NCBI GenBank assembly: GCA_002633005.1
Contig: NMRA01001046.1
Span: forward strand, 556-64,555
DNA length: 64,000 nt
Source: Phoronis australis
Taxonomy: Eukaryota; Animalia; Phoronida
Direction: 5' to 3'
Made by a program: the position numbers and the translations under genes. The notes under the pieces are model-generated. The model ran no database searches. It saw only the letters and a list, made by a program, of their open reading frames with translations, and had not been told where the DNA came from. This document shows positions 21,671 through 63,051 of the stretch, piece by piece (the stretch's first letter is position 1; each line of letters opens with the position of its first letter).

Positions 21671-21726
21671 TACAATCTTTGAATCGTTTGGAGATGCACA
21701 TTATTTTGTTTGGCATTTTATAACAG

Positions 21727-21834
21727 CGAATGTTACGACTGTGTCCATCGCAAGCATACCAACAGCAACGAATCCACCGACACAGACAAGTGCAGTCACC
21801 TCACCAATCATTACGAGCACAACACAACCTTCAA
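21727..21834 (+). CDS. Giant Ig gene, S/T/P-rich (mucin-like) exon
   Basis: ttttataacag| ... A|gtaagt, 108 nt, phase 1-1. NVTTVSIASIPTATNPPTQTSAVTSPIITSTTQPS. Confidence 0.7.
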
Positions 21835-22764
21835 GTAAGTGTGACTACAAACTGTGTTCAAAAAGCCTGTGACAAGAACACTGACGTTCACCGCGATCAA
21901 TCGGTGGATTTTGTTGAACGAGAATGACCGAGGCGTTTTATGTGGTAATATAAGTAGGTTTTTATTGAGAATCAAAGCCAACATCAAAATGAAAAGTCGT
22001 TCTGTTGGTGAAATGTTCTTACGTTATAGAAAGAAAGGGTGTATTTCATGGAGATAAAATGTTAATAATGCAACTTTACACAACAGTTCATTTATTAACA
22101 GAGAGAGCAACTTTGTATAAGGTATCTTACAATTAGTAACCAAAATTTGAGACGTACATGTATGTATGTATGTAACGGGTGCATGTGAGTATTTTCAGTA
22201 ACCTAAATATAAGACGGATATAACGGCTACACGTGAATATTTTCACAAAGCTTGGCGTCATTTGGTATACTTAACAGATCATTATGTGCAGTTTTCTTCT
22301 GAAAAGTTTAATTTATGTTAAAAACACTAGATTTTGTTTACCAACACTTCAGCACATTGCAGAATCAGATAAGGCTAAACCTATACATGTATTAACGTTG
22401 GCGATCTTGCATTTAAAAATGACTACCTACACATCTTTTGATAAAACATGTTCGGACTCAGTGCTTGACATTTAGGTTGATGTCAAGTCGCATTTGGGGA
22501 CCTGACAATAATCCCAGATCGCCAAAACGAGGGTGGCAAACGAAATCGGTGGTGGCCAAAACTGACGTCGGAACCGTTGGCTAAAATGGGGAGGGGGTTG
22601 CCGCACTCCAATCTGAGAAAGTTCCGACGCATACATATACCTAATCAATTTCTTCCCTTTAGCTTATGTAACATTCCTCTTGACACCTTAGACTACATGT
22701 ATACCCTGTAGTACATGGACCACCAACTCCGTGTATTTTCATTGGGCGAAACTCGTGATACTAC

Positions 22765-23210
22765 GTGGCGTCACTATTCATTAGCGACACCTGTCAGGCA
22801 TAACACGTTTTACTTCCGACAAGTACGTCGTCTGCCAATCATTTCGCAATTACATGAATACTAGCACTGCCACAAATACTCACGATACCAAGAGTTGTAC
22901 GACTGGAAGACCTTGAACAGTGTTTCCATGCCGAAATTATTTATTTTTTTTCGTTGTACTGAACACTAAAATAGATGCAAGAATTTCCATGCCACAATAC
23001 AGTAACGGGATGCTGAGTTTGCTATGTTTAGAGGGTGGCGGCTCCTCTAGGATATTACGCAAGAACATGTTGGAGTTGCGAATCTGTTGTCTATAATCTA
23101 TGCTGACACCATAGACTATAGACAACAGATTCGCAACTCCGATATATTCTTGCGTAGTATCCTAGAGAAGGCGCCACTCTCCTAATTTACCAACTTCAGT
23201 TTCCGGTTTG
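22765..23210. repeat. Second copy of the 15385 repeat, followed head-to-head by an inverted copy of its end (about 95-bp arms around 23095-23116)
   Basis: ...ggagttgcgaatctgttgtctata / tatagacaacagattcgcaactcc... is an inverted pair. Confidence 0.7.
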
Positions 23211-23344
23211 TGTCTGCTGCTACACGTAGCTTTACTTTCAAATGAAATGTCAAGAGTAATTATGAACAGGGACTGATTTTAATTGAATATAGCTTTCAAA
23301 ATCAACACGGTTACCTCAACACTGTTACAACGCATTTCTTTCAG

Positions 23345-23716
23345 TTGCTGGGTTTCGCATCACACTGACTGGTAATGTCACGTCCGCAGCCATATCACCG
23401 AATTCCTCGTACCCGCTAACCTATGGAGCCAATTACTACGTAGCTTGTGAAACAAACTTCATTCAAGTAGGCGCCACATTTGAGTTCGGTTTTGTGATCA
23501 CACAAGGAGGCAATTGGTCTATTACCAATCACTCAGAGATGTCTAGGTTTGGCGCTGGAGCTTTGACAGCACCTCCATATCCGCCGAACAACCTCGCGAA
23601 TTACTCGGCATCCATAACGTTCACTGCCAACGAAAGCATACACCACCGGGAAATAGCTTGCAGAATTAGCGGTGTTTCTGGTACTTTGATGAGAGCCTTT
23701 AAGGTGCATTTGAGTG
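23345..23716 (+). CDS. Giant Ig gene, Ig domain 1 (type A)
   Basis: tttctttcag| ... G|gtgagt, 372 nt, phase 1-1. YYVAC..FEFGF..EMSRFGAG..FTANESIHHREIAC. Confidence 0.85.
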
Positions 23717-24741
23717 GTGAGTTTTTGTGCGATGTGGTTCCTTTCTCACCTCAGTAAGGCTAGATTGATTCTTACATATCTATGTATCTACGTGTGCTTA
23801 ACGTGAAAACTGTTAAATTCAAACTGTAGTAACGCACGATGGTGAACATTGAGACGTGTACAAAAAACGGACTACTGTATTCCAAAATGAGGCACCAAAT
23901 TTGTGGACGGAGTATTCAAAATATCCCTGAAGGACAATCTTTGCAAACCATTCGAGTAGTTTATTTACAGAAAAATCAAGTGTTCCTGCCTGCGAGACTG
24001 AGTGTATCGGTGAAAAAGTTGTGGCTATCTACGTATAGTCCCTCAATTAGGCGCATGTACTGTTATGCTGGACATTTGAGTTGAACGTGCGTTGATTTTG
24101 GTGCTTCGGATATAGTTGCACCTCCCTAGTTTGCACAGACAGAAAGTCAGACACGATCGTTTCGGATTAGACATGAAAGCCTTCATGTATGCAACGGTAG
24201 CAGACAGTCAGGTTGAACAATCGCGACTCGATTGCTACTAAAACGTTGTGGCAGTTAAGTATATTTTTCAGATGAGATGAACCAAGCGATATTTTATGCA
24301 TGAGTCGTTCTTGAAAATGAAGCTTGTAATGCGTTTTAAAACTGTGTATCCTTAAACTTTAACTGATCCTGTACCAACCCAGAGTGTCACTAACTCACAC
24401 ACCCTGTGAGAAATAAAATGCATTTAGTGTATTTTTAAAAAATCATTCGAGGTTTGCCTATAACCGGATCATCACCTGCTCATAATTGTGGAACATACAT
24501 GTACATGTACATGTAGGTGCATGCGACTGTATGTGGGACATTTGAGCAACAAAATCTTTCTAAAACAAAAAAACGGATTGATCCGCATATTGGCGCATGC
24601 GAGTAATTGCGGGGCTGTACGGTTTTAATTCCTTAAAGGTGAAATACTGTCACGTAGAGTTATGTGGTCGATTTCAACGCCCTCTAGTTATCGCTTCGCC
24701 GCATACTGCATGATTTGAAACTTAATTTACGCATTTTACAG

Positions 24742-25083
24742 TCCAAACGCCCACGTTGGTTTTGGTAATTAAAGACGATAACGACACCGTGGTAATTGGG
24801 TCTTCAAGCAGAAGTGAGGGCGTCCTTGTGTGGGGCAGAAATTACACCGCACAGTGTCATGTCAATACTGCTTTTGAAACTGATGTGCAATTCTCTTGGG
24901 AGCCAACTCAATTCCCAAGGAAAACTCCTCGCTTAAGTTCTTCCAGTGGATCCTATACGTATACATCTCGCTCGGTATTCACTGCGTCAAGATTCAACCA
25001 CACCAAAACCGTGAAATGCACCTTGTGGCATGACACCATACATGAACTGAATGCGTCACAAACACTACTGATGAAAGTGTTCT
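24742..25083 (+). CDS. Giant Ig gene, Ig domain 2 (type B)
   Basis: ttttacag| ... T|gtaagt, 342 nt. GRNYTAQC..VQFSW..FTASRFNHTKTVKCTLWH. Confidence 0.88.
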
Positions 25084-26337
25084 GTAAGTAGAAAGAAGTG
25101 ACAGATTTTCTTTCGGTAGGATCACGTGGCAGCTAAAGGTTTAGGGCGGACAACTCACGCTCATGCTATACAATGTTTGTCATTTCGTCTCATCATTACA
25201 TGGAAGACCAGCGTGCGCAACAAATTGCCCTCGCAAATTATATTTTAGTACGCTAAACGTTTTTTAGGCATTCCTGTGAGGTTTCAAGAAACTGTGCATA
25301 CATGTACTTATTGACGTCATAGCTGTGGTTCATGTACCATTTCTTGTTTATTTCATTTAAAAACGTCTTAAATCACCGCCTTGCTAACATTTTATAACCT
25401 CTCTAGCTATACCCATAAGAGAAATTAGGCTTCACAGCTCCTTTTCTGTGCCAAGTTTTTGAAATCCGTTTAATTAATATGTTATGCGGAACGTGATCTT
25501 TACAGGTTGTCTCTAATTTTTTTCGAAATGCATGTTTGAAAGAGTACTGAAGTCCAGTTTCAAATGCGGACAATTATTATTTTTATAAAACGCGCGTGAT
25601 TGGGTTATATCTGTATGCAATTGAGTTTGCTGTCCCGTTGAAGCAACCGTATACACAATATTCCTGAATGGCCCAATAACCTGATGGAGGATGGGTACAT
25701 GCCAAATGCTTAATGGTGTTGTGATATTCTTCATTTTATATCAACACTTATTATTCGATATACGTTATGATTCGGCAACCGGGGTTACTAGGGAATGGTT
25801 ACCGTATATTTGGCATAACACAGACTGTGAATTAACTGATCAGACGGCTATGCGCATCATATTTCATTTCCCTTTGTTGCCTTCCAATGTCTGTGTGGTA
25901 CGAAACCTATAATCTGTTTATCCACACAGGCTGGCACGACTAGCCTACATGTACATGTACATGAATACACATGCCGTGATGCGAAGTATACTTTTGTACA
26001 TGTGCTACTGCCGCCACTTCCCACTTCGTGCTTGACGTAATCTGCATCTCTCCATAACAAACCATTTACACTTAGCTATCATTAGATTCTTTAAGGTCAA
26101 CCAGTTTCTAACTTTTCCCAAGTTGGGCTCGTCTACTAGCCTTCCACCGTCGACTTTGGAGTGGTACATATTTCGGAATTGCCTCCAGTATCTTCTTCTT
26201 TATAACCGGGTGCTGCTTTTAGACCTCAATATAATCCTTGAGGTCTTAGAGATGACACAATAGGGCTTTCCAAACAAAATTCTGGGCACTGGTTCTCCCA
26301 CCATTTCGCAGGCTATTCCTGGAAATCTGTTTTGTAG

Positions 26338-26721
26338 ATGGACCACTAGACACAGAAATACGAGGTAATTACAGTAGTGACAATACCACAGACCAGGACA
26401 CATATCTTCCTCTGCTGCGTGGACAAACCTACCAGGTCACGTGCTCAAGTAAACTTTATTCCGCCGCTGAGGTGATCTTTGGGTTTCTTGCGTCGCACTT
26501 GCAAGACGTGTCCACAGTCAAGACTACAGACCTTACCAACATAAGAACTACCATTATCCGGCGAACAAACACTACATCTGGTGGGCTGGGCGATGAATTT
26601 GTCGCCAGTTTAATGTTCACTGCCGACGAAATTGTTCACTACAGGACGATTGCCTGCGTAATCAAAAATTCAAACGTAACAACATTTGTCGATGCCCAAC
26701 GTATTCGATTTTACTTGAAAG
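26338..26721 (+). CDS. Giant Ig gene, Ig domain 3 (type A)
   Basis: ttttgtag| ... G|gtaagc, 384 nt. Junction gives YGP; GQTYQVTC..VIFGF..FTADEIVHYRTIAC. Confidence 0.85.
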
Positions 26722-27421
26722 GTAAGCTCAGTGCAAACCTACTGTCCCACCAGGCACCATATTTCTTTAGAGCACAGGCGCGCAGGAGGGTATTTCTTCA
26801 AATGCGAGTGCTCCGCCGGAATTGGACTCGTCTCTCTGCCAAAATGTAATACCCTGTTTCACGATGCAAGTAGTGATTCCCAGGGCTTTGGATGCAACTC
26901 GTGTCAGTCCTAGCAGTATGTCCCCATCTATGTCTTGGAATATTGAGCAAACGCAATGAACGGCAAGCTATTGATCCTCTGTCTGTACCGGACAATTCAA
27001 CGAAATTTTGACGCAACAAAACGCGATTTAACACCCGTTTATTCTACAACAATGAAAATATCTCTTGTGATATGATATGCAGGCAGGGATTTCAGAATGC
27101 GGACATTAATCTAGTCTATTATTTTCCAAAATATATTGGTCTATCCACAACACATTTCAGCCATGTCATTTTTATCACCCTCGCACCAGAGAGTGGACTT
27201 TTGCCGAATGAGAAGACTAATGCCAATGCACACAGAAACCGTTCTGTTGAGGCACTGCTTTTGTTGGAAACACTACCACGGGTTAGATTTTATGAACCCA
27301 AGTTGATTACGTCCTGTTTTCTTTTATCTTGGGGTAACTTGAAATGGGGAGTGCAGTTTGTTAAAACTGACAGGTTTTAGGTAGAATTGTATGAATGCAT
27401 AATGAAATCATTTGTTTTCAG

Positions 27422-27748
27422 ATCTGAGTGTTCAACTTGACGTGACGATAAACATTACAGACAGCAACAACAACAGCGTGAATGAAGGGTACTTGAAGGC
27501 AGGTTATAATTACACTGCCGTGTGTGGCTTGCGTAGTATCCTGTCCAGTGGCATTTCTATGGAATGGCGACGACCAAGTGCATCAGCCAACTTGAAAACC
27601 AGAATGCTGTCGTACACCGACTACATGTACTCTATCGAGGTCCCGTTGGAATGGCCTAAGGGGCAAACTGAAATCACGCTAGAATGCTTTGCATCACACA
27701 ATATGTCTGGACTTAATTGGACACACACAGATGTGTTTAACATTTTCT
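27422..27748 (+). CDS. Giant Ig gene, Ig domain 4 (type B)
   Basis: ttgttttcag| ... T|gttagt, 327 nt. GYNYTAVC..ISMEW..ITLECFASH. Confidence 0.85.
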
Positions 27749-28548
27749 GTTAGTATACTGTTTTTCGTTTTTAGTGTTATGCGAAAGAGGTGCACGAGTT
27801 GGGACTGATTATCATCTGTGTGAATGTAATGAATTACCACTCATATTTTCACTCCTCAAACGTGATATCCCTTTCTTTGAATTAAATGTTGTTGCATTCC
27901 AAAGCTTAAACCTATTTCAACCAACGTCCTTTCCTTAAGTTTATTGGCACCAAATTCATTTGTTAAGAAAGTTATAAACCATAACAAGCGAATCTGTAGT
28001 CCACTAAAACAAACTCAAGCTTCGTGGTATTTTATTACGTTTGGACCGTGGAAGGAGGCTCCGTTTAAATAACTACAAGTTTTGTTTGTTGATGGCTTAA
28101 CTTGAAATGATACTCCCCACACGTGCACTGAATAAAATCATCATTTTTTACTGTAGTTCACAAATTAAAATTTTCCACTGAGTAGCAAAATATGGTGCAA
28201 GTGGGTACACACAAATGCACCTCTTCTTACTCTTCTTCCGATACGTCCAACTTCCTCTGGTTGAAGACATTGACGGAAAATGTTTGGTCACTTCCAGAAG
28301 ACAAAATGCTGTTATTAATAGCAAAATGTGATACACATCGCAAGATAAAACAATTGAACAAGGTAATTTGATGGCATTTGGAACAATCTGTTCCGGAATG
28401 CCTCCACAGATGGTGCTGACTGCAGAATAGTGGTGGGGAAGAAGCTTTGCAACTGACCTCCCGTAGTTCACGTAACTTGTTGACGCACCAGGTCGCGGCT
28501 CACCTCAAAAAGTGGCATACTTTAGTGACACCACGACATACTGTCATG

Positions 28549-28695
28549 CAGGGGCGGATCCAGGATTTTGAGTTAGGAGGGCTGGGCACAGTACTAGCCA
28601 TGACTGTGCCAGTCAGACATTCGAACCCCGAACTGCCAAATAGAATCTGGTAGAATTTTAGGGGGGCATGGTCCCCTTGCCCCCATTTCAGCACT
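28549..28695 (+). mobile_element. GC-rich MITE-like fragment (caggggcggatccaggatttt end); inverted related end at 49647-49686
   Basis: caggggcggatccaggattttgagttaggagggctgggcaca nearly equals the reverse complement of 49647-49686. Confidence 0.55.
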
Positions 28696-29422
28696 GCAGC
28701 AAAATGCCCTTTACGTGGCTGTAAGAGATAGTGGTTGAATTCGCTTACGCATGTACTCTTTCGGGACTCATGCGGTGGTGGCCTATGCAGAGCAAAACTT
28801 ACCATGTAGCTTCAAAACCAAAATGATCGCTGGAGTTAGAACGCGATAGGAGCGTTTTCACCCCTCTGGCTTGACCATCATGTCGACGTCTTTAACAAGG
28901 AAGTCGACGTACAGTTGGTGGGCATAAAGTCGACTTATTGTTGGCTGCAAGGACATGGTCAAACACCACGTTGTTGATGTCATTTCTGTCAACATGCTGG
29001 GACTAAAAATGGCTACTCTTGATTGACGTATCCTGTACCGACGAATCAACCGGCTAAGATATTCTCTACGATGAGTTCCAGCTAGGAACCATACTGGAAC
29101 TCATCGTAGAGAACCAGTATGGTTCCTAGGTTCCAGCATACAAATGAATCAGATATCGTTACCGGTTGACCCGACGGAATCGACGAAGTCAATCGAACGG
29201 CTTATTCGGACAACAAACAATGACGTTTTATGTCACCGTTATGGAAATACACCTCAGTCGTGTTTGTCGGTCTTGTTAAAATCCGCTTTTCTCTATACCT
29301 ATGCAAGAAGCTAAGAATCTCTGTTTATTATCACGTGTTATTTGCGCTTTTCTTGTAGCGGAAATGTACGGAAAACATCCACATGGTTCTTGAAATATGC
29401 CAACTACCTTTACTTATTCCAG

Positions 29423-29803
29423 TCGGACCGACCGAGTTGGCTCTCACTGGCAACCTTACAGACGTCCACTCAAGGGGGGAAATGTATACACTTAAGCACG
29501 GCCAAATATACTCTCTGTCCTGCTCAAGTGATGTACTAAATCCATCAGGATCCGTTGAGCTCGGATTTGTCACTTGCTTGCAGTTAGATCAGTGCATCGC
29601 CAATGCCACTGAGGCAGGCAGTTACGGATCAGGTGAGCTGACACTCGAACAGAGCCCAACGGGAGCCAATGGCGTGAACTATACAGCCACTTTAACGCTC
29701 ACTGCTGACGCGAGCATTCATCAAAAGGAGATTGCCTGTTACGTCCGGAACACAGACGTAAGGGAATTCGCAGTGACCACAAATGTGTCGGTTTGTTTAG
29801 ACA
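29423..29803 (+). CDS. Giant Ig gene, Ig domain 5 (type A, extra cysteines)
   Basis: ttattccag| ... A|gtaagt, 381 nt. FGP..GQIYSLSC..VELGF..LTADASIHQKEIAC. Confidence 0.88.
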
Positions 29804-30332
29804 GTAAGTACTGCATAAAGAACTTCCTCGTGTTCTTCATTCTCATTAGCGAACAGAAAAAACAGATTCGACTATGGTAGGTCTTGTTTTCAACTGATAT
29901 TATCTGTGCCATACCCCACTGTATCAGTAGCACCGAATAAAGTTTGTACGATACACTTAATTTGAGACTGAAGTCATTTTAGCTTGCTTGTACTACATGT
30001 ACGTCACGAACTAGAGCCTGTATCGTTCGAGGTCTTTTGTCTTTCCGTTATCTCTGTTAACAACGATCGTCGATTAAGCAGACTCTCTTATTAGGAAGAT
30101 TCTATTCAAACTAACTAAGGTTGATAATGGTTGATTTATGTTATACGACCTGGGCGCAAGAAGTTAACAGTCACTTACACTATACAGGGGTCCCATCCTC
30201 AACTGGGTAACGGACATGAAACTGGTCTGTTCCCAAAAAATACGGGGTCCTTAAAACTGTCAATTGCCGAAGAAAATAACACCCGGTGACAGTACTAAGC
30301 TGAGGTGAACAAATTAACCTTTGAAGAAAGCT

Positions 30333-30757
30333 GTGCCCAGTTGCATGAAACAGTCCCAAACACGGACTCCACTAAGTTCCCTAAATCTGCTGAGTACTTC
30401 TTGACTTGTTAAGACATCGATTGATCTTCCTTGTATTGCGTTAGTTTCATTACTAAGTCGACATATGACATTGATACACATCTAGAGTGAACTCAACGTT
30501 GAAATTCCAATATTATCTAAAATACACTGGGATCTTTTCATGCAAAACCCCCAATTTAAGGACTGAGTCGCTACCTATTTTCAATAAATTCTGGACTCAG
30601 TTTTTAGTTATGATATTAAAAAATATTAATCGACGAAAACTTCATAATGAAGATGGAATGCTAGAATGTTGCATATTGCATCTTTGAGTCCATAAAGAGA
30701 CAAATACGCCAAAAGAATTAGGGTCCCTATTTGGGACTGTTACATGCAACCGACCAC
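30333..30757. mobile_element. MITE with terminal inverted repeats of about 28 bp
   Basis: gtgcccagttgcatgaaacagtcccaaa ... tttgggactgttacatgcaaccgaccac. Confidence 0.65.
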
Positions 30758-30899
30758 ATATGCCCAATATGCGATCATAAGCAGAGACGACCAGCCTGGA
30801 ATGATGTGGTCAGACTGGTTAGTGCCCAGCGATTGGTGTTGACCACTATCGAGACATTAAAATCACTCATGTGCAAATAAACTGTAAATTCACTTTCAG

Positions 30900-31254
30900 T
30901 CGGTGATCCAAAATTGATGATAACCCTCGAGGATGCGAAAGCTACCATTTTTAGCGCCGAAGCCAACAACAAGACAGCAGAAAAAGTTCATGTGGTTGAG
31001 GGTCAAACATATACAATCAAGTGCCTGCTTACAACTGTAATTCGTAATGGTGTGGAAATCACATGGAATTCGACTTTGGTCAACCTACNCGAATGTATCC
31101 AGTACAACACTCAACAGAGGCGGTATTTTACACCTGAACTGGTTTTCTTTCAAGGCATCTCGTGACAATCCCACTAGTCTCTCGAGATGTAACACGGGAC
31201 ACAGGTTCTTGCACGCACTGAACATGTCCATAAACGTAACCATGGACGTTTTCT
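30900..31254 (+). CDS. Giant Ig gene, Ig domain 6 (type B); apparent +1 frameshift at N 31089
   Basis: cactttcag| ... T|gtaagt. 355 nt including one N; removing the N gives 354 nt and a continuous GQTYTIKC..VEITW..FKASRDNPTSLSRCNTGH. Confidence 0.82.
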
Positions 31255-32716
31255 GTAAGTTAGTGGTATACTGCCTAATTTTATTAAGAAGTTGTTTTTC
31301 CTTGAGTTTCATTTTTCAAATACTTAATGAAACATGGAATTCAAAAACTCGTAAAGGAAATTAATATTTTAAACAGATCGTGACAAGTCTGGTTCTTGGG
31401 GATTCTATCGTGAGAGTTATTCACAGTGAATCTTTGAAAGAGTTTTTTGAAAAGTCTTCCGATTCAATTTTTTGAAATACGATTTTCAAATTTCTCGCCC
31501 CTGATAACACATTTGCGCACATGGGCTCAAAGTAGTCCGACTGGCTGTTGCTCGAAAACCGTTTTTTTGTTTTTATCAAAAGTCAAAGGTCACATCTTAC
31601 CATAACTAATAAGGAGACGTGCTCTGTCGTGTAGGAGGAAAATGAGGATGTGACGAGCACTTGAGTGATCGCTTTTTAGTTGAAATTTGAAAAGCCATGA
31701 CATCAAAAGAAATTCAAAATCTTTATGAAAAGGCCGTAAAAAATCCCTTGTGAAAAGATCAACCTCTGTTTCAGTGGCTGACAGCAAATTTGAACGTTTT
31801 TTTTTAACATTCTATATCACTATCAGACTTGGCAATACTCAGACAGTATAGCTAAATTCTTCATACTGGTTTGTACAGGTCTAGGACAACAGTTATTTCA
31901 AGTGCACTTACACACACTTCGGGGTAGAACAAAAGGCTTTTAGCATGTGCATCTTACATAGTTAGTTTTCTCAATGATTCAATTAAATCTCAACATGGAA
32001 ACCTGTTGGGATTCTATGATCAGTGAATATGGTACAGGAACATCTCCACGAGCTTTATAAATGATCCACTTTAGTTGCAGTCTGGAAGTTTGTCTTCTGG
32101 CAGCCCAGGAAAAATAAGATCTATTTCTAATTTGCGTGGAAAAAATCCAGCAGGGTGGCTAGTGGGTACAGATTAATGCTGCGAAGTAGACCACTGCGCT
32201 GTCCACTGCCTAATCCGGACATCTATTGTAATTGCATGCAATGTCATTTTGGCGAACGATAAGTGGCAAACCGCGTTGTCAGCGACTTTTGATTAGACGG
32301 TCGTGGTTTCGAAATTTACTTTGCACAAACAATTCACCGTCGTTGTTCGTGTGAATTTCCGTTCAGTCTGATTACTGCGTATGGAAATCTATCAACATTA
32401 ATATCGGGTTTCTAAAAATAATGCATCATTGGGTTTTATTGACTGGTTTAGTTATAGGTATGACAGAAATATGAATACATGTGTGCCCCTGATATTTGAC
32501 TTGACCGAAACAATTTCGTCAGAATCAATGGTCAGTTGTGTATAAATGATTTGATTAGCGAGAGTGGCTTCCAAACTTTTGCATATGACCTTAGATTGCA
32601 TGCGTGCTAATGTCTGAAAATACAAATAGCCAGGTGCCTACATGTATATCTTGGGCCACGTGTATTTCAGCAAACATGAAGGGCGTATTTTAACCCAGAA
32701 CTCCATGTTATTCCAG

Positions 32717-33049
32717 ATGGGCCGGTAAACTTGTTCTTGTTTGTCAATAACGCAACGCATCACCGCCGTTCTATCAATATGGAGATCAACGCCACAATGT
32801 CATTGGGTTGCAAGACCGACAGTGTTCGTCGCAACGCGTCTGTGACATGGATCTCACCCTCAAATGTTTTCGTGCCTACCAACGAGATCATGAGTTTCTC
32901 GCGTGGCAACGGCACCGATGATACAGTCGTCCATTCACGCAACACATACACAATCAGCCGTCTCCATCATACGCACAATATAACATGTACTGTAAAGAAC
33001 GTTGACTCCAACGTAACCGCTGCAAAGACGTTAATTCTGAATGTAATAC
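32717..33049 (+). CDS. Giant Ig gene, Ig domain 7 (type C)
   Basis: ttattccag| ... C|gtaagt, 333 nt. YGP..MSLGC..ASVTW..HHTHNITCTVKN. Confidence 0.87.
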
Positions 33050-33946
33050 GTAAGTAAGCGGTGTGGTCAAAACAAACCACGTTCACATTGCTTTCTATGA
33101 AATGTCCGACCGTTTGACATTTTGATGTTACTTTTGGTCCGTATTATTTGTTTTATTTCGTAAATCATATTTTGTAAAATTTCTTTGCTCAAGCTTCTTC
33201 TTCAAAGATTTTTGTATATCTACTGGTTCATTGATCAAAGCAATTGTTGATTCCTCTCTCTGTCTCACTCAAATGGTGATATCTCGTGGTTATCCGACAA
33301 ATCAGGTACACACGTCATTTGCGTCAATAAAATTTAAACCATTTGCCGCTAAAAGGATACCAAACCCGGTTTGGAACTGTTAACATATACTGGAAACGAC
33401 TTCCCATCCTGTTCTCTTGATCAATTTGCTTTGTAACCCCCAACAACTCTCAAGTTTGGAGGAAATAAAACACCTTTCAACATTTGTCAATCGGGGGGAG
33501 CGAGTTTAGCGAATTACATGACAACAGTCGGAATCAACCCCCCATCACAGACCAGGATGTCCAATTTATAAGAGCGGCGAGTTTAGTAAATTCCTGCTTT
33601 CATCTTTCACCTGTGGCGCCGATGAGGCATATTAGCAGGTGATAGACTCAGGATTGGTTTATATCATCAATATAGGATTTAGTGTCCTTTCAATTTACTT
33701 GTGTTGTTCTTTAATCGGGTTAGACGTTATATCTGACCTTGTGAATAAATAGGAGATTTGGTACTAATTTAGCTTGACCCAACAGTTCTGAGCTCTATAA
33801 CCGGAAGTAGTCTAAATCAAAATACATATGCATCTTTTTTCATGGATGCGGAATCTTGACGGATTTCGTGATGTGGGAATTTCGATAATTAGTTCTCCAA
33901 GGTCGGTGAGATTCAGATGAAATCATGTCCTTCTTTGATATTACAG

Positions 33947-34330
33947 AGGGGCCGTCGCGGCTCCAAGTCGAAGGCAGCATTAGTAACACGACCGTTCAGT
34001 CGAACGTTAGCTACGCCATCAGGTACGGAGAGCGTCATTCCCTCCGGTGTACGACTGACAATACCTTTCCAGGTGCCCAGGTTGAGTTTGGGTTTTACAC
34101 AGGACCAGGGGCCAACCGCCGCATAGCTAACGCAAGCGACATGCAGCACTTCGGAGGCGGGAGCTTGAAGATAATGAACGAAACAGACCCGGGGACAGGT
34201 TTCGTGAATTACACCGCTAACGTCTCCTTTGTAGCAGATTTAAGTATTCACAACACGACTATATCTTGCAGAGCAGTCAATGTTGAGAATCAGGAGACAT
34301 TAGCTGTCGATTTTTCGGTGTACATTTCAG
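33947..34330 (+). CDS. Giant Ig gene, Ig domain 8 (type A)
   Basis: attacag| ... G|gtaagt, 384 nt. QGP..HSLRC..VEFGF..IANASDMQHFGGG..FVADLSIHNTTISC. Confidence 0.88.
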
Positions 34331-35610
34331 GTAAGTCTTGTGCAAACTGACGACTTCCGTTTAGCATCGCCAACATCTCTCGGAGTAGCGCTTTGTATGA
34401 CGAAACCATTTTCTAACTACCCAACTTTGGCAAGGAGGAATGAAACGTGATGTCAATGATTTCGCGATCTACGGATTGGAAAACACTGAACACAGCACGG
34501 TGAACACATAAAGTGTCAAGGCAGGCATTCTTACACATCTGAGGCTTTTACGTATCTCAAGCTCTTATAAAAATGACTTTTTCCGATTTTTTTATATTTT
34601 CTCTGAATTACTTTTTGATGAGGTTCGCACACTCGTGCAGCGACGTTGAGGTGCTCAGTTGCACATCCGGGTCACTTAAAGTGGATACGCATGAGGTGAG
34701 AGACTTGGAGATTTGAAGCACGTCTTTCGTGAGTTTCCAACTTATCTGTCGTTTGCCTTTTGAAGTGGATAAGATGCGGTTTACCCGATATTTCAAGCAA
34801 TCGAAAACCCTAGTGTAGTTTATGTGAATGCCAGTATTATCTTTTGCTTGCCCACTAAGTTGTTAGATAATTTTCCCCGAGTCTTTAAACACAGAACTCA
34901 CTTATACAGCTTAGGCGTCCCAAGCGATAGCTTAGCATTTTTCCCAAGCAAAATGCAAATGCACGTATTCAGTTCCCGTGATTGAGGCACTGTCGTGCGA
35001 GCAACTCTGGTGCACGTGACCTCACGGCGCGTCGGTGCGTTTTTGCAAAATGAATCCACGTGTGAAGGTGAAGTAACATTTGAGCAAAGGAGAAGTTCAC
35101 ATGGAATTGCTGTGATATAAAGATACATTCCAAGCATACATGTAATTAGCTGTCACCATGTTTAAATCTCGACTGAATGACTTCTATTTCAAACACATTG
35201 CCACGTTTTTCCAAACTTGAAATACTATGGCACACGTCGGCAATTCAAATCGCATGCGGTGCGTAAACGCGTCATTTTCGACTTTTGAAATGTGTAATCT
35301 CAATAAGTTCTTAAGCGTTTTCTTCAACCGATGATGGTTGCAATGTGCTTGATTTTTTGAGAAATATAGAATACTAGCACGGCGAAAACTGATACGAGAC
35401 CAATTTTATTTGAGTAGAAAATGTATGCCGACGTTTGTCCTATAGCAAGCTTTACAGGGCTTGGTGCATCTTTAACATCTTTGCTCAAATGAGCTTCTTG
35501 GTTACTTTGATATTTGAAGATTGTCTGCTGAGCGAGTCATGTGCTGGTCATGGAAAATTGGTTGGAGAACCTTAATCAGTAGTTTAATAAATATTTACAT
35601 TTATTTGCAG

Positions 35611-35964
35611 CGGAAAACGTTGAAATCACCATCAGCATAACAAATGAGAACGGTCTAGACAACTACAAAGAACCCAATCCAGTGGGCAGCGTCGCTACCC
35701 CATTGATAGCTGGTAAAAATTACACTGCGAAATGTAGCTTCACAAGCGAGGTGGCGTTGGGAGTCATCATTTCCTGGGATCACTCTCCAAACCCTCCACC
35801 TCCGGTGAAAAAGAATGTGCTTTCGTCAGGAAATTACAAATACTTGTCGGAGACTGCCTTTACGGCGTCAAAGATGTTCGACGGGACTACTTTTAGGTGC
35901 AAGGCGTCGCACGGGAAGATTCGTGACTTTGACGCTGAGCAGTCAGTCACAGTCTATGTATACT
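35611..35964 (+). CDS. Giant Ig gene, Ig domain 9 (type B)
   Basis: ttatttgcag| ... T|gtaagt, 354 nt. GKNYTAKC..VIISW..FTASKMFDGTTFRCKASH. Confidence 0.88.
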
Positions 35965-38900: not shown

Positions 38901-39334
38901 GAGCTGAACTGTGACAAAACTCAGCTGTGAGGTCTTTTTCAACAATGAACGACGCGAGTCGTCTGCCGATTTTAATTGGACATTCTGATTTATTGGTGGA
39001 TAATCGCGACTAGACTTTCAGTTATCCCAAAAAATCGCAAGTTACAAGCTCAATAATTGGACAGTGAATGATGAAGCCAGTTTGTTGAGCCCCCGCCTGT
39101 GAACATGTGCCTTCTGAAATGAATCATCTTAGCGGGGGCTTACATTTAGGTTGAAGCAAACAATGAACTATGGTTTTATTGTTTACTTACTAATGCATGG
39201 CCCCCTTGCCCCCTCCCCCCGGGCATTGAATACACTAAAACGTTAAACGGGTAAAGCAATGGCGCTGGACGAAGTGTTAAATTTCACTGAGTTAAGTTTA
39301 TTTTCAAGTCTGAGTAATCTGTAACTCATTTTAG

Positions 39335-39667
39335 ATGGTCCGACAGCGATGTCGCTGTACGTAAACAATACGTTATTCCACGCCGGATGGATCGACGTAA
39401 CTGCCGGGACTCCTTTAGACATCAGGTGTCTGACAGATGACGTCAAGCCAGACGGTGGAGCCGAATGGTCTTCGTTGTATGGTGCCACCTTTTCACCTGT
39501 GGTGCAGAAATTGTCTGGCAACATCACGGGAACTAAAGTCATCGATACATCTGTTGTGATAATCTCCTCCGTGAAATCGCATGCAGATGTGTATTCTTGC
39601 GAAGCACACAACCTAGCTGAAAAAAACATTCTGTTTTTTACAAGAAGCCTCAGGGTGAATGTTAAAT
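39335..39667 (+). CDS. Giant Ig gene, Ig domain 10 (type C)
   Basis: cattttag| ... T|gtaagt, 333 nt. YGP..LDIRC..GAEW..HADVYSCEAHN. Confidence 0.87.
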
Positions 39668-40061
39668 GTAAGTAGGTGAGTTTACTTTCAGTGCACGAAT
39701 CTTTCTCCATGTAGATAGTAATTACTCATCAGAAACAACCCAGGTATTTCTGTAGCCTAAACATTTCGTCTGAGGTATGTCAGCAAGTTTGAAAAAAATC
39801 TCATCACTTCATTGGATTAGAATTATTTCTGGAGTTGAGAACAACTGATTGGTCCAGATTGGTTGACTTTGAAGGTTCCTTCTGGTCAGCGTGCTAAGAT
39901 AGGGTCGTAAGCAGAAGTCGTCATCAATAACAGATCAACTGTTTTTAGGCGGAAAAATCGATAAAATAGATGTACAATGTACACCCAATGCTTCGACTCC
40001 AGACCATTAAATTGCTTGTCACGGCGGGTTCATGTCAGGTAGCCAAGGTAGTATGTCCCTT

Positions 40062-41149
40062 CCAAGCGATTTACTTCTGATTAAAAACTTTTCTAAAATA
40101 ATGTATTGTTTTTGTTGCTAAGACGGGCTCACACGAGATTGCTGTTTTTTCTGTTCTAAACGAAATTGAATCATGTTCTGTCACTTTTCTGTTAGTTTCA
40201 TTAGCTAAATATTATATTGACTGCAACCCCTTAGTAACTACAACGTTACATAAAGTTAGTTAATTATTTTCTGCAAATGTTACAAATTCAATACACAATT
40301 GCCGTTGCTTTTATCTCAGCTATCTCTTTCCAAGTAATAAATAGTTACAAATAAAACTATTTCTTTTACCATAGAAAAAATGTAATATAACGCGCAAGTA
40401 CATACACATACATGTAGGATGTGATACGCCACATTAACAGTCTGTGTGATGTATTTAAAAATTTTGGCAAAAAAATGAAAGAAACTTAAGAATTCGAAAC
40501 GAACGGGGCAAATTCAGTCTCGATCGTTACGCGGAATATTGTCTCATGGCATATTACTTCATCCACGCCACTCCCGATACGTTTGTGTATATATTTCCAT
40601 TTCTNCCAAGCGATTTACTTCTGATTAAAAACTTTTCTAAAATAATGTAGTGTTTTTGTTGCTAAGACGGGCTCACACGAGATTGCTGTTTTTTTCTGTT
40701 CTAAACGAAATTGAATCATGTTCTGTCACTTTTCTGTTAGTTTCATTAGCTAAATATTATATCGACTGCAACTCCTTAGTAACTACAACGTTACATAAAG
40801 TTAGTTAATTATTTTCTGCAAATGTTACAAATTCAATACACAATTGCCGTTGCTTTTATCTCAGTTATCTCTTTCCAAGTAATAAATAGTTGCAAATAAA
40901 ACTATTTCTTTTACCATAGAAAAAATGTAATATAACGCGCAAGTACATACACATACATGTAGGATGTGATACGCCACATTAACAGTCTGTGTGATGTATT
41001 TAAAAATTTTGGCAAAAAAATGAAAGAAACTTAAGAATTCGAAACGAACGGGGCAAATTCAGTCTCGATCGTTACGCGGAATAATGTCTCATGGCATATT
41101 ACTTCATCCACGCCACTCCCGATACGTTTGTGTATATATTTCCATTTCT
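40062..41149. repeat. Near-identical tandem duplication of about 543 bp (40062-40604 and 40606-41149) split by a single N; probable uncollapsed haplotype overlap
   Basis: Both copies run ccaagcgatttact ... tttccatttct and differ by a few SNPs/indels. The junction is an N. Confidence 0.85.
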
Positions 41150-42370: not shown

Positions 42371-42691
42371 TTGGACCCTCGCACATGAATGTTACCATAA
42401 ACGGAAATGAAGTAACCGACTCCGCATACAACTTCACTCACAACCGTTTCGTCTTAGTCGAGTTTGTGACGGATGAGGCCTACCCGAATGTCACCATGGA
42501 AACGCAGTCACCTGGATTAACGGCAAATATCTCGTTTAGAGAGAGAGAAGGCAGGAGATCGAAATATTTTGTTGCCAGCTTCGGTTTTGTTCCCCAACCG
42601 TCTCACAATACCCACTCACTGATTTGTAACGCCTCCAATGTTGAGACGCCAACGGTGGTATTCGTGAAAAGTATTACAATGAACGTCATAG
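42371..42691 (+). CDS. Giant Ig gene, Ig domain 11 (divergent; lacks the B-strand Cys)
   Basis: tttgttacag| ... G|gtaagt, 321 nt. FGP..LVEFVTDEAYP..FVPQPSHNTHSLICNASN. Confidence 0.83.
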
Positions 42692-45902: not shown

Positions 45903-46253
45903 CTGGTCCATCGACTCTCACAATCCGGAGTACGGGCGGAATTGTAAATGGCTCGAGTACATTCTTGGTCGAATTTCAAAGAATATATGAGGTCACTTGC
46001 GAAAGTGACAGTGTGAACCCATACCCAGAGATGACGTTTACACTTCAGAGAAAGCGTATGCGTAACGTTACCAAGAATAGCCACGCATACAACTATCGGT
46101 TGTCTACAGACCCGTTATTGATGCAGCGATACGCGGTGAATATGACGTTTACGGCTACAACCAACGTCCATGGGATGCCATTGAGCTGCAATGCAAGAAA
46201 CATCCAAAGCGAAGAACTTTCAGCATACACGTCTGTGGAAGTTACATTAGCAG
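45903..46253 (+). CDS. Giant Ig gene, Ig domain 12 (type A-like, shorter)
   Basis: cctttcag| ... G|gtaagt, 351 nt. AGP..IYEVTC..PEMTF..FTATTNVHGMPLSCNARN. Confidence 0.87.
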
Positions 46254-47218: not shown

Positions 47219-47569
47219 TGAGCAAAGTCAACATCACGGTGACCATTTACAACGCAACGAACGGCAGTGAAGTGTACAAGTACATCAACGACACCATTGT
47301 TGCACAGCGTGATCTTTTTAGCAATGAAGAATACAAGTTTGAATGCAGCGCCCCTAGCATCTTTCCCAACGTGTCAGTCATCTGGACGCCCAGTAATATT
47401 ACCAGCTTACCAGTTACGACATCAACTGGAAGCAACCCGACCATATTTGCGTCCAACTTCACGCTAAATGTCTCCTCTGTACACAACAAAGCAATGGTGA
47501 ATTGTACGGTCCAACACGGTGATATACCAGAGTTCCAAAGTATTCACTCTATTCTTTTGAATGTCCTCT
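47219..47569 (+). CDS. Giant Ig gene, Ig domain 13 (type B)
   Basis: tttttcag| ... T|gtaagt, 351 nt. EEYKFEC..VSVIW..VHNKAMVNCTVQH. Confidence 0.88.
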
Positions 47570-48238: not shown

Positions 48239-48622
48239 TTGGACCTACGACTTTAACCATTGAGAGCAACGTTGATGGCGTTGTCCCTGAGGATCAGTCA
48301 TCATACTTTGTAAAATTTGGTAAGATGTACAACCTCACGTGCTCAACAGACACGGTTTACAAGAACGCCTCTCTAAAATTCGCGTTCGAGATCACCGTTG
48401 GAGGAATTTCAGCAGTTGCAACCAAAGCCCAGATGTCACAGTTCGGTCAAGGAGTGCTTCGTGAAGCAGAACTCGCGTCAAACCCTCCCGACTTGTCGTA
48501 TAAGGCCGGTATGGGATTCACTGCCGACTTTACAACACACAGAATGGTTGCCATATGCTTGGCGGTCAATGATGACTTGCCTAGATTCAAAGTTAAACGA
48601 TCTGTTTCCATTTTACTTGATG
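48239..48622 (+). CDS. Giant Ig gene, Ig domain 14 (type A)
   Basis: tattttag| ... G|gtaagt, 384 nt. FGP..MYNLTC..LKFAF..QMSQFGQG..FTADFTTHRMVAIC. Confidence 0.87.
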
Positions 48623-49994: not shown

Positions 49995-50345
49995 TTCAAC
50001 GAGCAGACATCGTTGTCACTATCGTGGACACAGACGGCACTGCAATCTACAACATTTCGAACCAGCAAAGTATGAAGAGCGCTCTGGTGACCGGGAAGAG
50101 ATACAATGTTCAGTGTGAAGTCATCAGCGTTCTTCCAAGTGGTGTTGACATCGCATGGAATCCGATAAGTCAATCTCAACTGAACACAACACAGTCTGCT
50201 CTTCCCGGTGGTGCATATAGTTATTATTCTAACTTCAGCTTCACCGCTTCCAAAGATCACCACAAACGACAGTACACTTGCTCAGTCGCCCACAGCGTTG
50301 TGAGCGAGATTAATTCAACAAGACAATTTGAACTAGATGTTCACT
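49995..50345 (+). CDS. Giant Ig gene, Ig domain 15 (type B)
   Basis: ttttgtcctag| ... T|gtgagt, 351 nt. GKRYNVQC..VDIAW..FTASKDHHKRQYTCSVAH. Confidence 0.88.
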
Positions 50346-55886: not shown

Positions 55887-56222
55887 ACGGTCCGGATAGC
55901 TTAAATATCAGTGTGAGCAACGGAACTCTTGACTGGTCAAATAATCAGCTGTCTGTGCGCTACATGAAGAACTATACAATCTTCTGTCAGACCGAACTCT
56001 ATCCATCCGCGAGTGTGTTGCTGAGAATTATTTTAAGTGACCTTACAGAAATTGAGACAGATGATGCAGTCGTCTTGACTTCGTCAAGTTATGGAAAAAT
56101 CATCGTTGCCAATGTCACATTTCAAGCCACTTTTGCATCTCACAATAGTAAAGTTACCTGTACAATAACGAATCGTGCCACCAGAGCGTCCAGTTCGCAA
56201 GAAATCAAGATATTGATGTCTG
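55887..56222 (+). CDS. Giant Ig gene, Ig domain 16 (type A-like); GC splice donor
   Basis: ttctttcag| ... G|gcaagt, 336 nt. YGP..NYTIFC..FQATFASHNSKVTCTITN. Confidence 0.82.
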
Positions 56223-58528: not shown

Positions 58529-58882
58529 AAAAAATGCCGGATTTAAGTGTAATCGTCCAGTCCGTCGCGACAGGAATCATTCACTATAACCATTCTTCGG
58601 AGACCTTGAAACACTATGAAGACCTAACGGAAGGCGTGTCATATTATGTCGAATGCAAGACCGTCGGGACATTGCCAAATATTCAATTAAAGTGGACCAG
58701 ACCGACATTTAGCAATCAAGAGGTCAGCAACGATACGCGTTCAGGTCAAATGTACACCAGCATTCGTTCGTTCACGTTCATTGCCAAAGACATTCACCAC
58801 CAACAATTTATTGGATGTCAAACAAAACAGATGAACTTGGAATACCTGCAACAGGAGGCTGTCTTTAAAATTCATGCCCTGT
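58529..58882 (+). CDS. Giant Ig gene, Ig domain 17 (type B)
   Basis: aattgcag| ... T|gtaagt, 354 nt. GVSYYVEC..IQLKW..FIAKDIHHQQFIGC. Confidence 0.87.
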
Positions 58883-59238: not shown

Positions 59239-59311
59239 GTCCCGATAGCTTAAAGGTTCAAAGCTCCAGCACAGTTAACAGAAGTTCCGGCATTGGGCCC
59301 TGGTCGGGACA
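59239..59311 (+). pseudogene. tRNA-like relic (tRNA pseudogene or SINE head)
   Basis: 73 nt with a perfect 7-bp acceptor stem GTCCCGA/TCGGGAC plus A, TA then a GCTT..AAGC D-stem. Anticodon and T arms are degenerate. T-run a few nt downstream. Confidence 0.5.
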
Positions 59312-60070: not shown

Positions 60071-60130
60071 GACTTAATCATACTAAGAGATGGCGTCTTA
60101 AAAGACGCCATCTCTTAGTATGATAAAGTC
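60071..60130. repeat. Near-perfect palindrome: 23-bp perfect stem, 2-nt loop
   Basis: atcatactaagagatggcgtctt-aa-aagacgccatctcttagtatgat, extended by gactt/aagtc after one mismatch. Confidence 0.9.
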
Positions 60131-60849
60131 AGTGGAGATATAGAACACGAAGTGGTATAAGTTCAAACAGAAAACGGTAAAAAAACGAAATCAATTCTGG
60201 CAAAACATACCCTTAAAAATTCAACGTTTAGGTTATTGTTGCTCAAAAAAACGACGTGGAATGGAGGTGAAGTAGGAAAAAACAGGAGACAATTGTGCCA
60301 AGAGTTTGGGAACGTAAATGTAGTGCGTTCACTATCGAATTTGTTTTGTGAACCTATCAGTAGCGGCCTAAGCTACTATTTTGAATGACATTGACAAGGT
60401 GCGTTTTGTGTTTGAATTTCTAAGAATACCCTGATACTTGGGATTTAGGCTGTCGGCTAGTCCCGCCTTTGTCTTAAGAGCGCTTAACCTAAAATGCACA
60501 CCCAGGGGGCGAAGCTCAGGGAGCTCGAATAAGCCCCCCATGTGGCGAAGCGGGCAAGAAGGTTCGCCCCTTAGAGACAAAATGTCCGAGAAAATGGGAC
60601 AAATGTCTACTTAATGAGCACAAACGCGCAATCCACGGTGGTGCTCCAGTTTTTGTTTTGTTTTTTTTTTTAGTCCGCATGCTCCATTAACCTGAGAAAT
60701 ACGAGCCCCCCTAAATTGGAGGCTTGGGTGCGCGCATGCATTTTTAGCGAAATCCAAATCTGTTGAAAATAGAGATAAGTGTAAGACAATACAAGCACCT
60801 CTATTTGTTCTTTTGAACTGTCACATGACTTCACTTTGGTTTGCCACAG

Positions 60850-61221
60850 ATGGACCTTCAACAACTGAAATACGTGTGAACTCAACGACAGGGACCAGCC
60901 TTGGCTACGGCCTGGAGTACGGGCGAGTGTATGTAGCGAGTTGCAAGAGCTCGAGCGTCAGTCGAACAGCAAACGTTTCCTTTGGATTCGAAACTGCCCC
61001 ATCAAAAATAGCTACTGATGCATCAGAGTTGGCAGTTTTCGGTGAAGCAGCTCTTCTGCTACAGACTAATGAGTCTGGAACCAACAACGGATTGAAGTTT
61101 TTATCAAAGATAACGTTTACTGCGGACGCCAGCGTCCATAAGCGAACGCTTCGATGTTTTGCCGAGAATAACATTATATCTCGTTTCAACGCGTCTTCAA
61201 GCGTCGTGGTTTATATTGACA
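60850..61221 (+). CDS. Giant Ig gene, Ig domain 18 (type A)
   Basis: tttgccacag| ... A|gtaggt, 372 nt. YGP..GRVYVASC..VSFGF..ASELAVFG..FTADASVHKRTLRC. Confidence 0.86.
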
Positions 61222-62724
61222 GTAGGTGACCCAATGTTTTGTTTCCAACCTTATCGTTGTCTTATATCACTAAACAACGTTTTGTTGAGATCCCGATCAA
61301 AGTTATTGAAATTTGAATCTCATGGTACATGTACGTAGGATCGGTTACATGTCCTTAAGACCTCGGGCCGGTGTTGGATGCATTACTCAATTTCTCGTTA
61401 AAGTGAGTCTAAACCTACCATTTATTACAGTGTACATGTTTTATTGTCTAGGTAATTCAGAGTGATGATATCGACCTCAATTTGTTGTTTGATAAAAATC
61501 CACGTGGTTCCGGGGATTACAAACGGCTTAGAGTTCGCTTCTGCATGAGATTTACTGTACCTCTTCACGTTGACTTGCTGTGGAGCGTTACTTTAAACTC
61601 CTATCTTGTCTTCAAGCCAGTTCTATGCAAGACTAAAACCCTTTCTCATATTAATAAGGGAAACGTTGAGACCAATTTAATTGCGCTAACTGGCATTACT
61701 CAAATCTAAACATTCTACGGAACGTGGGTTTAAAATTCTACGTCTCATCATAGAATAAACACAGCAGATTGGCTTCTAGTTTTCTGTCCAGTATAACAAA
61801 AAATATAATTTCGGCATTAGCCTTTGGTATTTCCATAGATAATGAATCTAGAAATTTTTAGCAGCGCCGGCGTGCATTCAAGCTTGAATGAAACGCTCTG
61901 TGTACTACGTAAACTGTTCTTGGAGAGCAAGATAGATTCTGAGTAGCCCTGGTGGTAATTTCTGGAGTATTAATTTGACCTTTTTTAAGACATTAACGTT
62001 TTACGAGCGTGCAATTTATTTAAACACGGATGTGACTTCCGCAAAATCGCCAATCTAACTTCCGACAAAAATGACCATGATTAGCAGACGACGTACTAAC
62101 CGGAAATAAAACGTGCTATGTCTGCCAGGTGTCGCTAGTGAACCGTGACGTCACAGCTTAGGCCTACAAATTTCGTCCATTGAAAATTTACGCAGTTGGC
62201 GGTCCATGTACTATAGTCTATTCTCTCGTTAAAACCGTCAGTGATTACTGAAACTTGTAGCAAGCGCCACCTTGTGACTTCCTGGCGAACTCTGTGTACA
62301 GGTACATGTATAACCAGTATTAGAAAAAAAATGTAACTAAATCGCTGTTTAAAGAAAACACCTCCACTGATATACATGTACAGAAAAAAGAAGTGTGATC
62401 GTATAGAAAACCCTAGTAATTCCAAATATTACACAATCATTATTAATAGTCAAATGCACTACATGCAGTAATAAAAACAGTGCCTTGTTTCATAAGGGTA
62501 ACAATGACAAATTACCATAATCAGTCACATAAGAATAGTCTCGCAAAACGTGACTTCTGCGATATTGTGAAGGCAATTGGTTCTCGGAAGACCCTGGGTT
62601 ATTTGTAAACTATACCTTCTTTTGCATATTCACAATTTAATGATGTATAGCATCTTTAAAAACGCTTTACCCACCTCTGTAACACAAATGCAAACCTCAT
62701 CCGATCTTGTAATTATATCCTCAG

Positions 62725-63051
62725 CAAAGGAAACCGACTTGCTCATTTCCGTCTTTGAAATTGGAAGCAAATCGCCAACACCGCCAGACCAGCGCAGTAA
62801 AATAGTTCTTGTTGATGGGTGGAGCTACACAGCAGTATGTCAAACCGACAATGTGATACCTAACATTACAATACACTGGGTGACGTCACCTGGGATGAAA
62901 GTCACCCCAGTTAACGGGACGAATCGCTATCAAGCAACAGTCAATGTCACTGCCAATTCTTCGCTTAAGGACACTGCAATGGAATGCTCTGCGAATCACA
63001 GTGTCATTTTGACGCTAGCATCTTCAAAGACCATAGGACTGGACGTTTACT
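62725..63051 (+). CDS. Giant Ig gene, Ig domain 19 (type B); gene continues beyond the window
   Basis: atcctcag| ... T|gtaaga, 327 nt. GWSYTAVC..ITIHW..TAMECSANH..LDVY. Confidence 0.85.

Follow-up and report, generated by a model that had tools for sequence, protein, structure and literature searches.

Introduction

Sialoadhesin (CD169/Siglec-1) uses 17 immunoglobulin (Ig) domains to raise its binding site past the glycocalyx (PMC13070564, in the part of the article available), and the accessible text of PMC10084454 calls invariant both the nephrins, with nine Ig domains plus FN3, and the Kirrels, with five. Here we describe a long Ig-domain gene from the phoronid Phoronis australis, found in 64,000 nucleotides of contig NMRA01001046.1 (GenBank assembly GCA_002633005.1, positions 556 to 64,555, forward strand). 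This whole stretch is called the window, and positions are counted from its first letter. The gene comprises a leader-like exon (E0), a mucin-like exon and 19 exons that each code for one Ig domain (D1 to D19), and it likely continues beyond the 3′ edge of the window.

In Ig-superfamily genes, one domain per exon in phase 1-1 is the customary arrangement, and an alternating two-domain pattern occurs in sialoadhesin and CEACAM5. Dscam genes contain arrays of mutually exclusive alternative exons, and hemicentin carries an N-terminal VWA domain ahead of its I-set array. Divergent invertebrate Ig proteins such as the Alr proteins of Hydractinia are scarcely caught by sequence profiles (excerpt of PMC9546547), and invertebrate Ig receptors with tails bearing an immunoreceptor tyrosine-based activation or inhibition motif (ITAM/ITIM) exist (excerpts of PMC9546547 and PMC11999971). 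As for C1-set domains, a 2025 paper states, in its available portion, that none had been reported outside vertebrates before the sponge structures (PMC11926128).

Results

An Open Chain of Ig Exons Built on a Two-Domain Pair

The mucin-like exon (21727..21834) codes for 35 residues rich in Thr, Ser and Pro and is followed on the + strand, from 23.3 to 63.1 kb of the six-frame translation, by 19 Ig exons of 321-384 nt, each a multiple of 3. This chain was the core of a first-pass annotation of the sequence and is present as described there. Every Ig exon starts after an AG acceptor and ends at a donor, both in phase 1; the donors are GT except for a GC at exon 16, and that of exon 4 is a weak GTTAG. 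Exon 6 measures 355 nt as assembled, a single N at 31089 breaking the frame, which is open once the N is dropped. With the N removed and E0 included, the joined frame runs for 2,293 codons with 0 stops and holds 40 Cys and 83 N-x-S/T sequons (about four per domain), in line with the earlier impression that sequons are abundant. Seventeen domains have two Cys, D5 has five and D11 the F-strand Cys alone, as had been noticed before; the B-F Cys pair is present in 18 of the 19 domains and, together with the structure models below, places the chain in the Ig superfamily. The motif [YF]GP marks eight of the 18 Ig-Ig junctions, and xGP two further ones. As side observations, the extra Cys of D5 (two lie in the C-D insert and the third in strand G) might form an additional or inter-chain disulfide, and the missing B-strand Cys of D11 would leave its remaining Cys unpaired.

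A chance control counted acceptor hits: 21 on the + strand against 0 on the reverse strand, with a single one over all 20 Markov resamples; its criteria were taken from these same exons, which makes the test favourable to the gene. A profile of the 19 domains, run against all six frames of the window, found no extra Ig exon (next best E 0.08). No membrane-length hydrophobic stretch exists past the N-terminus in the 2,293 codons, the top windows of 19-residue Kyte–Doolittle hydropathy (KD19) all falling within the first 13 positions. Introns of 2.7-5.5 kb flank D10-D12 and D15-D16. Since D19 closes on an open phase-1 donor, the gene likely continues 3′ of the window, as far as its sequence can tell.

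The domains had been treated as all of one kind, an interpretation that overlooked a regular pair. Mutually 11-35% identical, they fall into two main types and one loose group. Type A comprises D1 (23345..23716), D3 (26338..26721), D5 (29423..29803), D8 (33947..34330), D12 (45903..46253), D14 (48239..48622), D16 (55887..56222; the exon with the GC donor) and D18 (60850..61221). These domains are mostly longer, replace the C-strand Trp by Phe or another aliphatic or aromatic residue and, in most cases, carry a short-helix insert between strands C and D. Type B, which retains the C-strand Trp, comprises D2 (24742..25083), D4 (27422..27748), D6 (30900..31254), D9 (35611..35964), D13 (47219..47569; nine sequons), D15 (49995..50345), D17 (58529..58882) and D19 (62725..63051). 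The loose type C consists of D7 (32717..33049), D10 (39335..39667) and D11 (42371..42691).

The resulting order is AB AB AB C AB C C AB AB AB AB, that is, an A-B pair that occurs eight times, with three type C inserts. Each of the eight A and eight B domains finds its best partner within its own type. With types set from alignments ahead of the test, 3 shuffles in 200,000 matched the eight A-B adjacencies. Compared by hhalign, the A profile is related to the B profile (probability 95%). We conclude from these sequence comparisons that the chain grew through ancient tandem duplications of a unit of two exons, a process that is frame-safe because the exons are symmetric (phase 1-1).

Transcription and the N-Terminal Exon

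Transcription was followed in three raw-read RNA runs (X1 to X3), of which about 18–19% each was read, and one contig run from 2015 (X4), all under the same species label and placed on 19700-39699, a stretch that covers E0 to D10. GT..AG joints exactly at the predicted borders were found in X1 as well as in X2, but were absent from X3, for six of the 11 first-half junctions, as judged from the best 15 of 34 joint rows, many of which derive from repeats. The most upstream of them joins 20669 to 21727, i.e., E0 to the mucin exon (14 reads in X1, 9 in X2), and moves the start of the gene upstream of 21727, where it had been placed. The mucin exon is in turn spliced to the acceptor of D1 (11 and 5 reads, in the same order), the donor of D2 to D3 (7 and 3), D3 to the acceptor of D4 (7 and 4), the donor of D5 to D6 (8 and 7), and D6 to the acceptor of D7 (5 and 5), so that both borders of D3 and D6 are confirmed; D8, D9 and D10 have read cover in X1 and X2. 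No gene exon was skipped among the 15 of 34 rows. The symmetric exons had suggested combinatorial length variation, which is a formal possibility only, the junctions in these rows joining neighbours.

First mates lie on the - strand, as a stranded library made from + strand RNA should give. Low-repeat bins show exon depths of about 2-17 (X1), about 2-9 (X2) and 0-0.6 (X3), the bins over D1 and over part of D5 and of D6 being omitted as dominated by repeats; expression is modest and confined to some samples (two of the three raw-read runs). Run X4 has almost no depth on exon bins, which proves nothing either way. Sense-strand cover is low within the D9-D10 intron, and E0 to D10 share a common on/off pattern across runs. 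The proposal of one expressed gene is thus supported at least across the first half, as one transcript. For D11 to D19, which were read from sequence only (with a structure model for D15), membership of the same transcript is inferred. Among 40 of 556 rows of differences between the RNA and the assembly, two are exonic. Two positions in E0, 20621 and 20637, differ between the RNA individuals and the assembly, each by a conservative residue change.

E0 (20607..20669; 63 nt, phase 1-1) was predicted from sequence as leader-like. It codes for a 12-residue hydrophobic stretch that stops at the exon border; the highest hydropathy windows of the whole chain lie here, with KD19 up to 2.0 across the border between E0 and the mucin exon. 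The simplest reading, and a likely one from the sequence, is a cleaved signal peptide. Together with the 83 sequons, this leader-like exon agrees with the earlier view of an exported glycoprotein. Two other candidates near the 5′ end were dropped: a microexon at about 20009-20032, which sits in a repeat with cover on both strands, and a hydrophobic open reading frame at about 21350-21460, which the RNA splices past.

No membrane-anchor or stop exon was found in any intron, and leader-like intron candidates are at control level (one sense, against two in the antisense control). A leader-like frame of 16 codons, its phase-1 donor at 56612, lies in the D16-D17 intron; it is at chance level and a possible internal start. 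Past the weak donor of D4, a stop follows after one intron codon, and poly(A) signals occur at 27881, 28131 and 28164, all three within 420 nt; D4 is also covered more deeply than D5 in X1. A short secreted isoform of four domains, made by read-through at D4, is possible.

Domain Class and Fold

Pfam gave an Ig-family match in 10 of the 18 exons scanned. PF08205 was reached at E ≤ 0.1 in nine of the 18, of which D13 alone exceeds the cut-off of that family (C2-set_2, 25 bits), whereas D2 (24.8 bits) and D15 (29.8 bits) exceed the cut-off for the C1-set; the two halves of D6 had no Pfam match. In the ESM Atlas, the top clusters of both domains tried, D8 and D15, were assigned to PF08205 at 0.96. 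Structure prediction covered the same two of the 19 domains, and the AlphaFold models of D15 and D8 (predicted local distance difference test 91 and 87) are seven-strand beta-sandwiches. The best structural match of the D8 model is SYG-2 D2 (Z 14.2, root-mean-square deviation 1.9 Å, 105 residues aligned), followed by Rst D2 (Z 12.4), and Foldseek agrees. For the D15 model, MAG D2, SYG-2 D2 and CD22 D2 are tied (Z 10.5-10.6; for SYG-2 D2, Z 10.6, deviation 2.9, 102 aligned), IgM reaching 9.0. Foldseek returned a mixture of nectin-like proteins, HLA-DM and IgM for D15, while the VIA ranking puts adhesion-molecule D2 domains about 1.5 Z above IgM.

Against the sequences of the PDB, the B profile has antibody constant domains on top (IgM, E 4e-12) and the A profile had 0 matches at E ≤ 1. 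We do not claim antibody-type (C1-set) domains, because the structural ranking favours the CD80-like class, a widespread one, and the starfish protein discussed below also scores on the C1-set. The domains are predicted, from these models, to belong to the CD80-like C2-set class with a nephrin/SYG-2 D2-type fold, which upholds the original assignment to CD80-like or nephrin-type C2-set domains.

Relatives

HMMER, run with the A profile alone against 1.84 billion representative proteins, gave 16 weak matches at E ≤ 1e-3. Twelve were judged not to be animal Ig relatives and set aside, namely weak partial scores added up in repeat proteins of bacteria, one plant protein and low-complexity repeats; four (P0006, P0013, P0015 and P0016) are animal or animal-like. 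The best named animal match (P0006, E 1.1e-5) is XP_022104107.1 of the starfish Acanthaster planci, an uncharacterised protein whose name, “synaptogenesis protein syg-2-like”, comes from automatic annotation. In its 1,226 residues, about ten tandem PF08205 Ig domains lead by way of a stalk to a membrane helix, after which comes a tail of 50 residues in which no ITIM motif matched. The first six domains alternate, with odd ones 36-43% and even ones 45-56% identical.

Both proteins thus contain tandem PF08205 domains from a duplicated two-domain unit. They differ in size (about ten Ig domains against 19 or more here), in sequence, the per-domain identity between them being 13-31%, and in the place of the stretch outside the Ig chain, the starfish stalk being membrane-adjacent and the mucin segment here N-terminal. 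The starfish domains group apart from those of our gene (support 91 in a rapidly built, long-branched tree that omits Ap8-10), and neither the A nor the B profile favours its even domains. On this sequence evidence, the pair repeats of starfish and Phoronis are of like design and were expanded independently.

P0016 is an unnamed 125-residue fragment resembling a single exon; it matches the full domain (27% to D10) and suggests at the sequence level that closer relatives exist in unannotated animals. A scan of metagenomes with D8 left one of 178 stretches (L001), rejected as an off-frame chance match in a bacterial beta-galactosidase gene, and Rfam gave no match. A word-based search with the A alignment, among proteins of 224-2,000 residues, matched 0 of 7,997 candidates, and both exons of the conserved FAM174 neighbour (see below), used as a control, were equally without match. 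This blank is uninformative because the protein here is longer than that size range and the control was blank too. No full-length orthologue was found by a protein search that was blind to the FAM174 control as well, and the idea that the gene is lineage-specific finds no support in such a result. No description of such a gene appeared at title and abstract level in the literature searched, a coverage outside of which most subscription journals lie.

Comparison with Described Systems

The D2 fold of the D8 and D15 models is a feature shared with nephrin, SYG-2 and Sns and with Kirrel and SYG-1. Nephrin and SYG-2, which also carry an FN3 domain, a membrane helix and a PDZ-binding tail, have nine Ig domains, whereas here 19 Ig exons lie in one frame, ten of them within the RNA-covered stretch. 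The gene further departs from nephrins and Kirrels in that its Ig domains are all of a single fold class, a mucin segment lies at the N-terminus and there is no match at the level of sequence. In Kirrel and SYG-1 five Ig domains are followed by a membrane helix; here no anchor exon comes after D5, and D5, D6 and D7 are spliced serially.

Sialoadhesin resembles the gene in its very long Ig chain, and the D2 domains of MAG and CD22 are among the tied matches of D15. Sialoadhesin belongs, however, to a vertebrate family, and a Siglec begins with a V-set domain with a conserved sialic-acid-binding Arg (available part of PMC13070564), whereas D1 is of type A and groups with D8. None of the 18 exons scanned with Pfam matched the V-set or the I-set.

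The PDB matches of the B profile and the Pfam C1-set scores of D2 and D15 point towards antibody and major histocompatibility complex (MHC) constant domains and the C1-set domain of sponge SAML/RTK proteins; the gene has no V domain, and adhesion-molecule D2 structures score higher for D15. Like the Alr proteins, it codes for a divergent invertebrate Ig protein barely detectable by profiles, although Alr proteins have one to three V/I-set domains, mostly without the B-F disulfide, and form a multigene cluster, and the present chain is single with the disulfide in 18 of 19 domains. Alr-like allorecognition receptors are further marked by extreme allelic polymorphism and by binding that depends on the allele. 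Neighbouring exons are joined serially at each gene junction among the rows examined, which differs from Dscam, and the direct splicing of leader, mucin exon and D1, with no I-set match in the 18 exons, differs from hemicentin. The gene is not a member of the nephrin, Kirrel, Siglec, Dscam, hemicentin or Alr families, although its product likely works in a similar way. This agrees with the first-pass annotation, which had already separated it from nephrin, Dscam and hemicentin on its architecture.

Remainder of the Window

The only other gene recognised in the window is a two-exon gene on the - strand for a FAM174-like membrane protein (exon 1 at about 11395-11796, exon 2 at about 6924-7062, PF06679 in both), head to head with the Ig gene and about 9 kb from it. 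Its presence shows that the DNA is from an animal, and a CpG observed/expected ratio of 0.90 points to an invertebrate source, the ratio being far lower in vertebrate bulk DNA. At 40059-41149 a 546-bp segment is duplicated head to tail with 98.5% identity, one N (40605) standing between the copies, and is probably an artefact of assembly; the single Ns at 7092, 31089, 49498 and 53641 resemble this join marker. Dispersed repeats at 19700-20121, 28549-28666 and 37150-37813 are heavily covered by RNA of either strand in every run, the reads coming from copies elsewhere. Two inverted-repeat elements of about 200 bp (21476-21676 and 23004-23208, arms 78-81%) are similar to miniature inverted-repeat transposable elements, the second being related to 15541-15805. 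Minisatellites are located at 5854-6295 (period 34, 13 copies) and 17844-18042 (period 43, 4.6 copies).

Discussion

We hypothesize, at about an even chance, that this expressed gene makes a single heavily glycosylated Ig rod, probably membrane-anchored, for long-reach binding to cells, matrix or microbes. E0 would direct the export of the mucin segment and at least 19 Ig domains, including the eight A-B pairs, as a glycan-coated chain. By analogy with starfish XP_022104107.1, a C-terminal anchor with a short tail may be coded past the window. An Ig domain is 4-4.5 nm long, and 19 of them would form a rod of about 75-85 nm if straight, which could hold the N-terminal end far from the cell surface, in an adhesion or spacer role such as that of sialoadhesin.

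Several observations weigh against this proposal. The C-terminus lies beyond the window, and the membrane anchor and tail are pure analogy with a starfish protein whose domains are low in identity and group apart, i.e., an analogue rather than an orthologue, and whose stalk adjoins the membrane whereas the mucin segment here is N-terminal. Unlike sialoadhesin or nephrin, the chain has no V-set or I-set binding tip, and ligand binding is a proposal by analogy. E0 contains no in-frame Met and the start codon was not located; a further upstream exon is therefore required, for which the sequence offered no convincing candidate. The 15 of 34 rows do not include the joints D1-D2, D4-D5, D7-D8, D8-D9 and D9-D10, and RNA support stops at D10, D11 to D19 resting on the genomic letters.

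These last gaps would also suit a tandem set of at least two genes, or one gene that has short isoforms as well, with a split in a long intron or after D4, and the 2.7-5.5 kb introns around D10-D12 and D15-D16, the leader-like candidate with its donor at 56612 and the uneven cover of D4 and D5 in X1 fit such a split. We consider it improbable, given that the introns hold no stop or anchor exon, that the leader candidates are at control level, that the run pattern is common to E0 through D10 and that the A-B order is unbroken. An array used in the Dscam manner, with one or few exons at once, would exploit the fact that skipping any symmetric exon keeps the frame; it is scarcely credible and largely refuted, for the RNA joins D2-D3, D3-D4, D5-D6 and D6-D7 serially with no skip among the rows shown, and the exons are just 11-35% identical. 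The N-terminus could instead anchor a type II membrane protein, in which the E0 stretch is left uncleaved, the mucin segment is the stalk and the C-terminus is the outward tip. The order anchor, mucin, Ig suits a membrane-proximal stalk and the KD19 of 2.0 across the E0/mucin border speaks for it, yet the hydrophobic part has just 12 residues and ends at a phase-1 border, small residues occupying -3 and -1 in the manner of a leader exon, and type II Ig proteins are rare; we regard this arrangement as very improbable.

What the chain does past D19 divides the remaining explanations. A secreted protein serving as scaffold in mucus, cuticle, glue or extracellular matrix would need no anchor, the Ig chain being a structural, protease-resistant spacer, and such a product would agree with a mucin segment directly after the leader-like exon, the 83 sequons, the lack of an anchor in 2,293 residues, expression in two of three runs only, and a weak D4 donor with stop and poly(A) signals that could yield a short secreted form. 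It is nevertheless fairly unlikely: the closest named animal analogue is membrane-bound, and no matrix module (VWA, EGF, collagen) has appeared so far. The open donor of D19 could equally lead into a signalling receptor (a receptor phosphatase or kinase, an adhesion G-protein-coupled receptor, or an immune receptor with ITIM/ITAM or a death domain), and invertebrate Ig receptors with ITAM/ITIM tails are known (PMC9546547 and PMC11999971, in the portions available). The 19 domains include no FN3, EGF or other receptor module, and the tail of the starfish analogue is short and without an ITIM match, so we judge this ectodomain role distinctly unlikely. Nothing specific points to the allorecognition or immune function suggested earlier. 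A bolder version has a small chance only: that this is among the longest invertebrate Ig chains made of C1-like/CD80-like domains alone, a rod well over 80 nm without a V/I-set tip and possibly type II, whose rigid A-B pairs would be a repeated binding or self-association module for long-range recognition, next to a short secreted four-domain isoform from D4 read-through.

Under the anchored or exported glycoprotein that we prefer, the gene is an uncharacterised, oversized version of a known protein type; the mechanism is not new, none beyond those of sialoadhesin or nephrin being opened, and, judging from its sequence, a smaller protein of like design is already contained in the starfish annotation. 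Function, inferred here, can be ranked only once the C-terminus and the tissue are known. The locus is a clean example of growth via a duplicated symmetric two-exon unit. If our model is true, it adds C1-like domains outside vertebrates, to be compared with the sponge case (PMC11926128, as far as its available portion goes), and such surface or secreted chains would be receiving “nephrin-like” or “syg-2-like” labels from annotation pipelines, or would be missed. It would also mean that a nephrin-type D2 module was amplified as two-domain units, on at least two independent occasions, to give invertebrate glycoproteins of great length.

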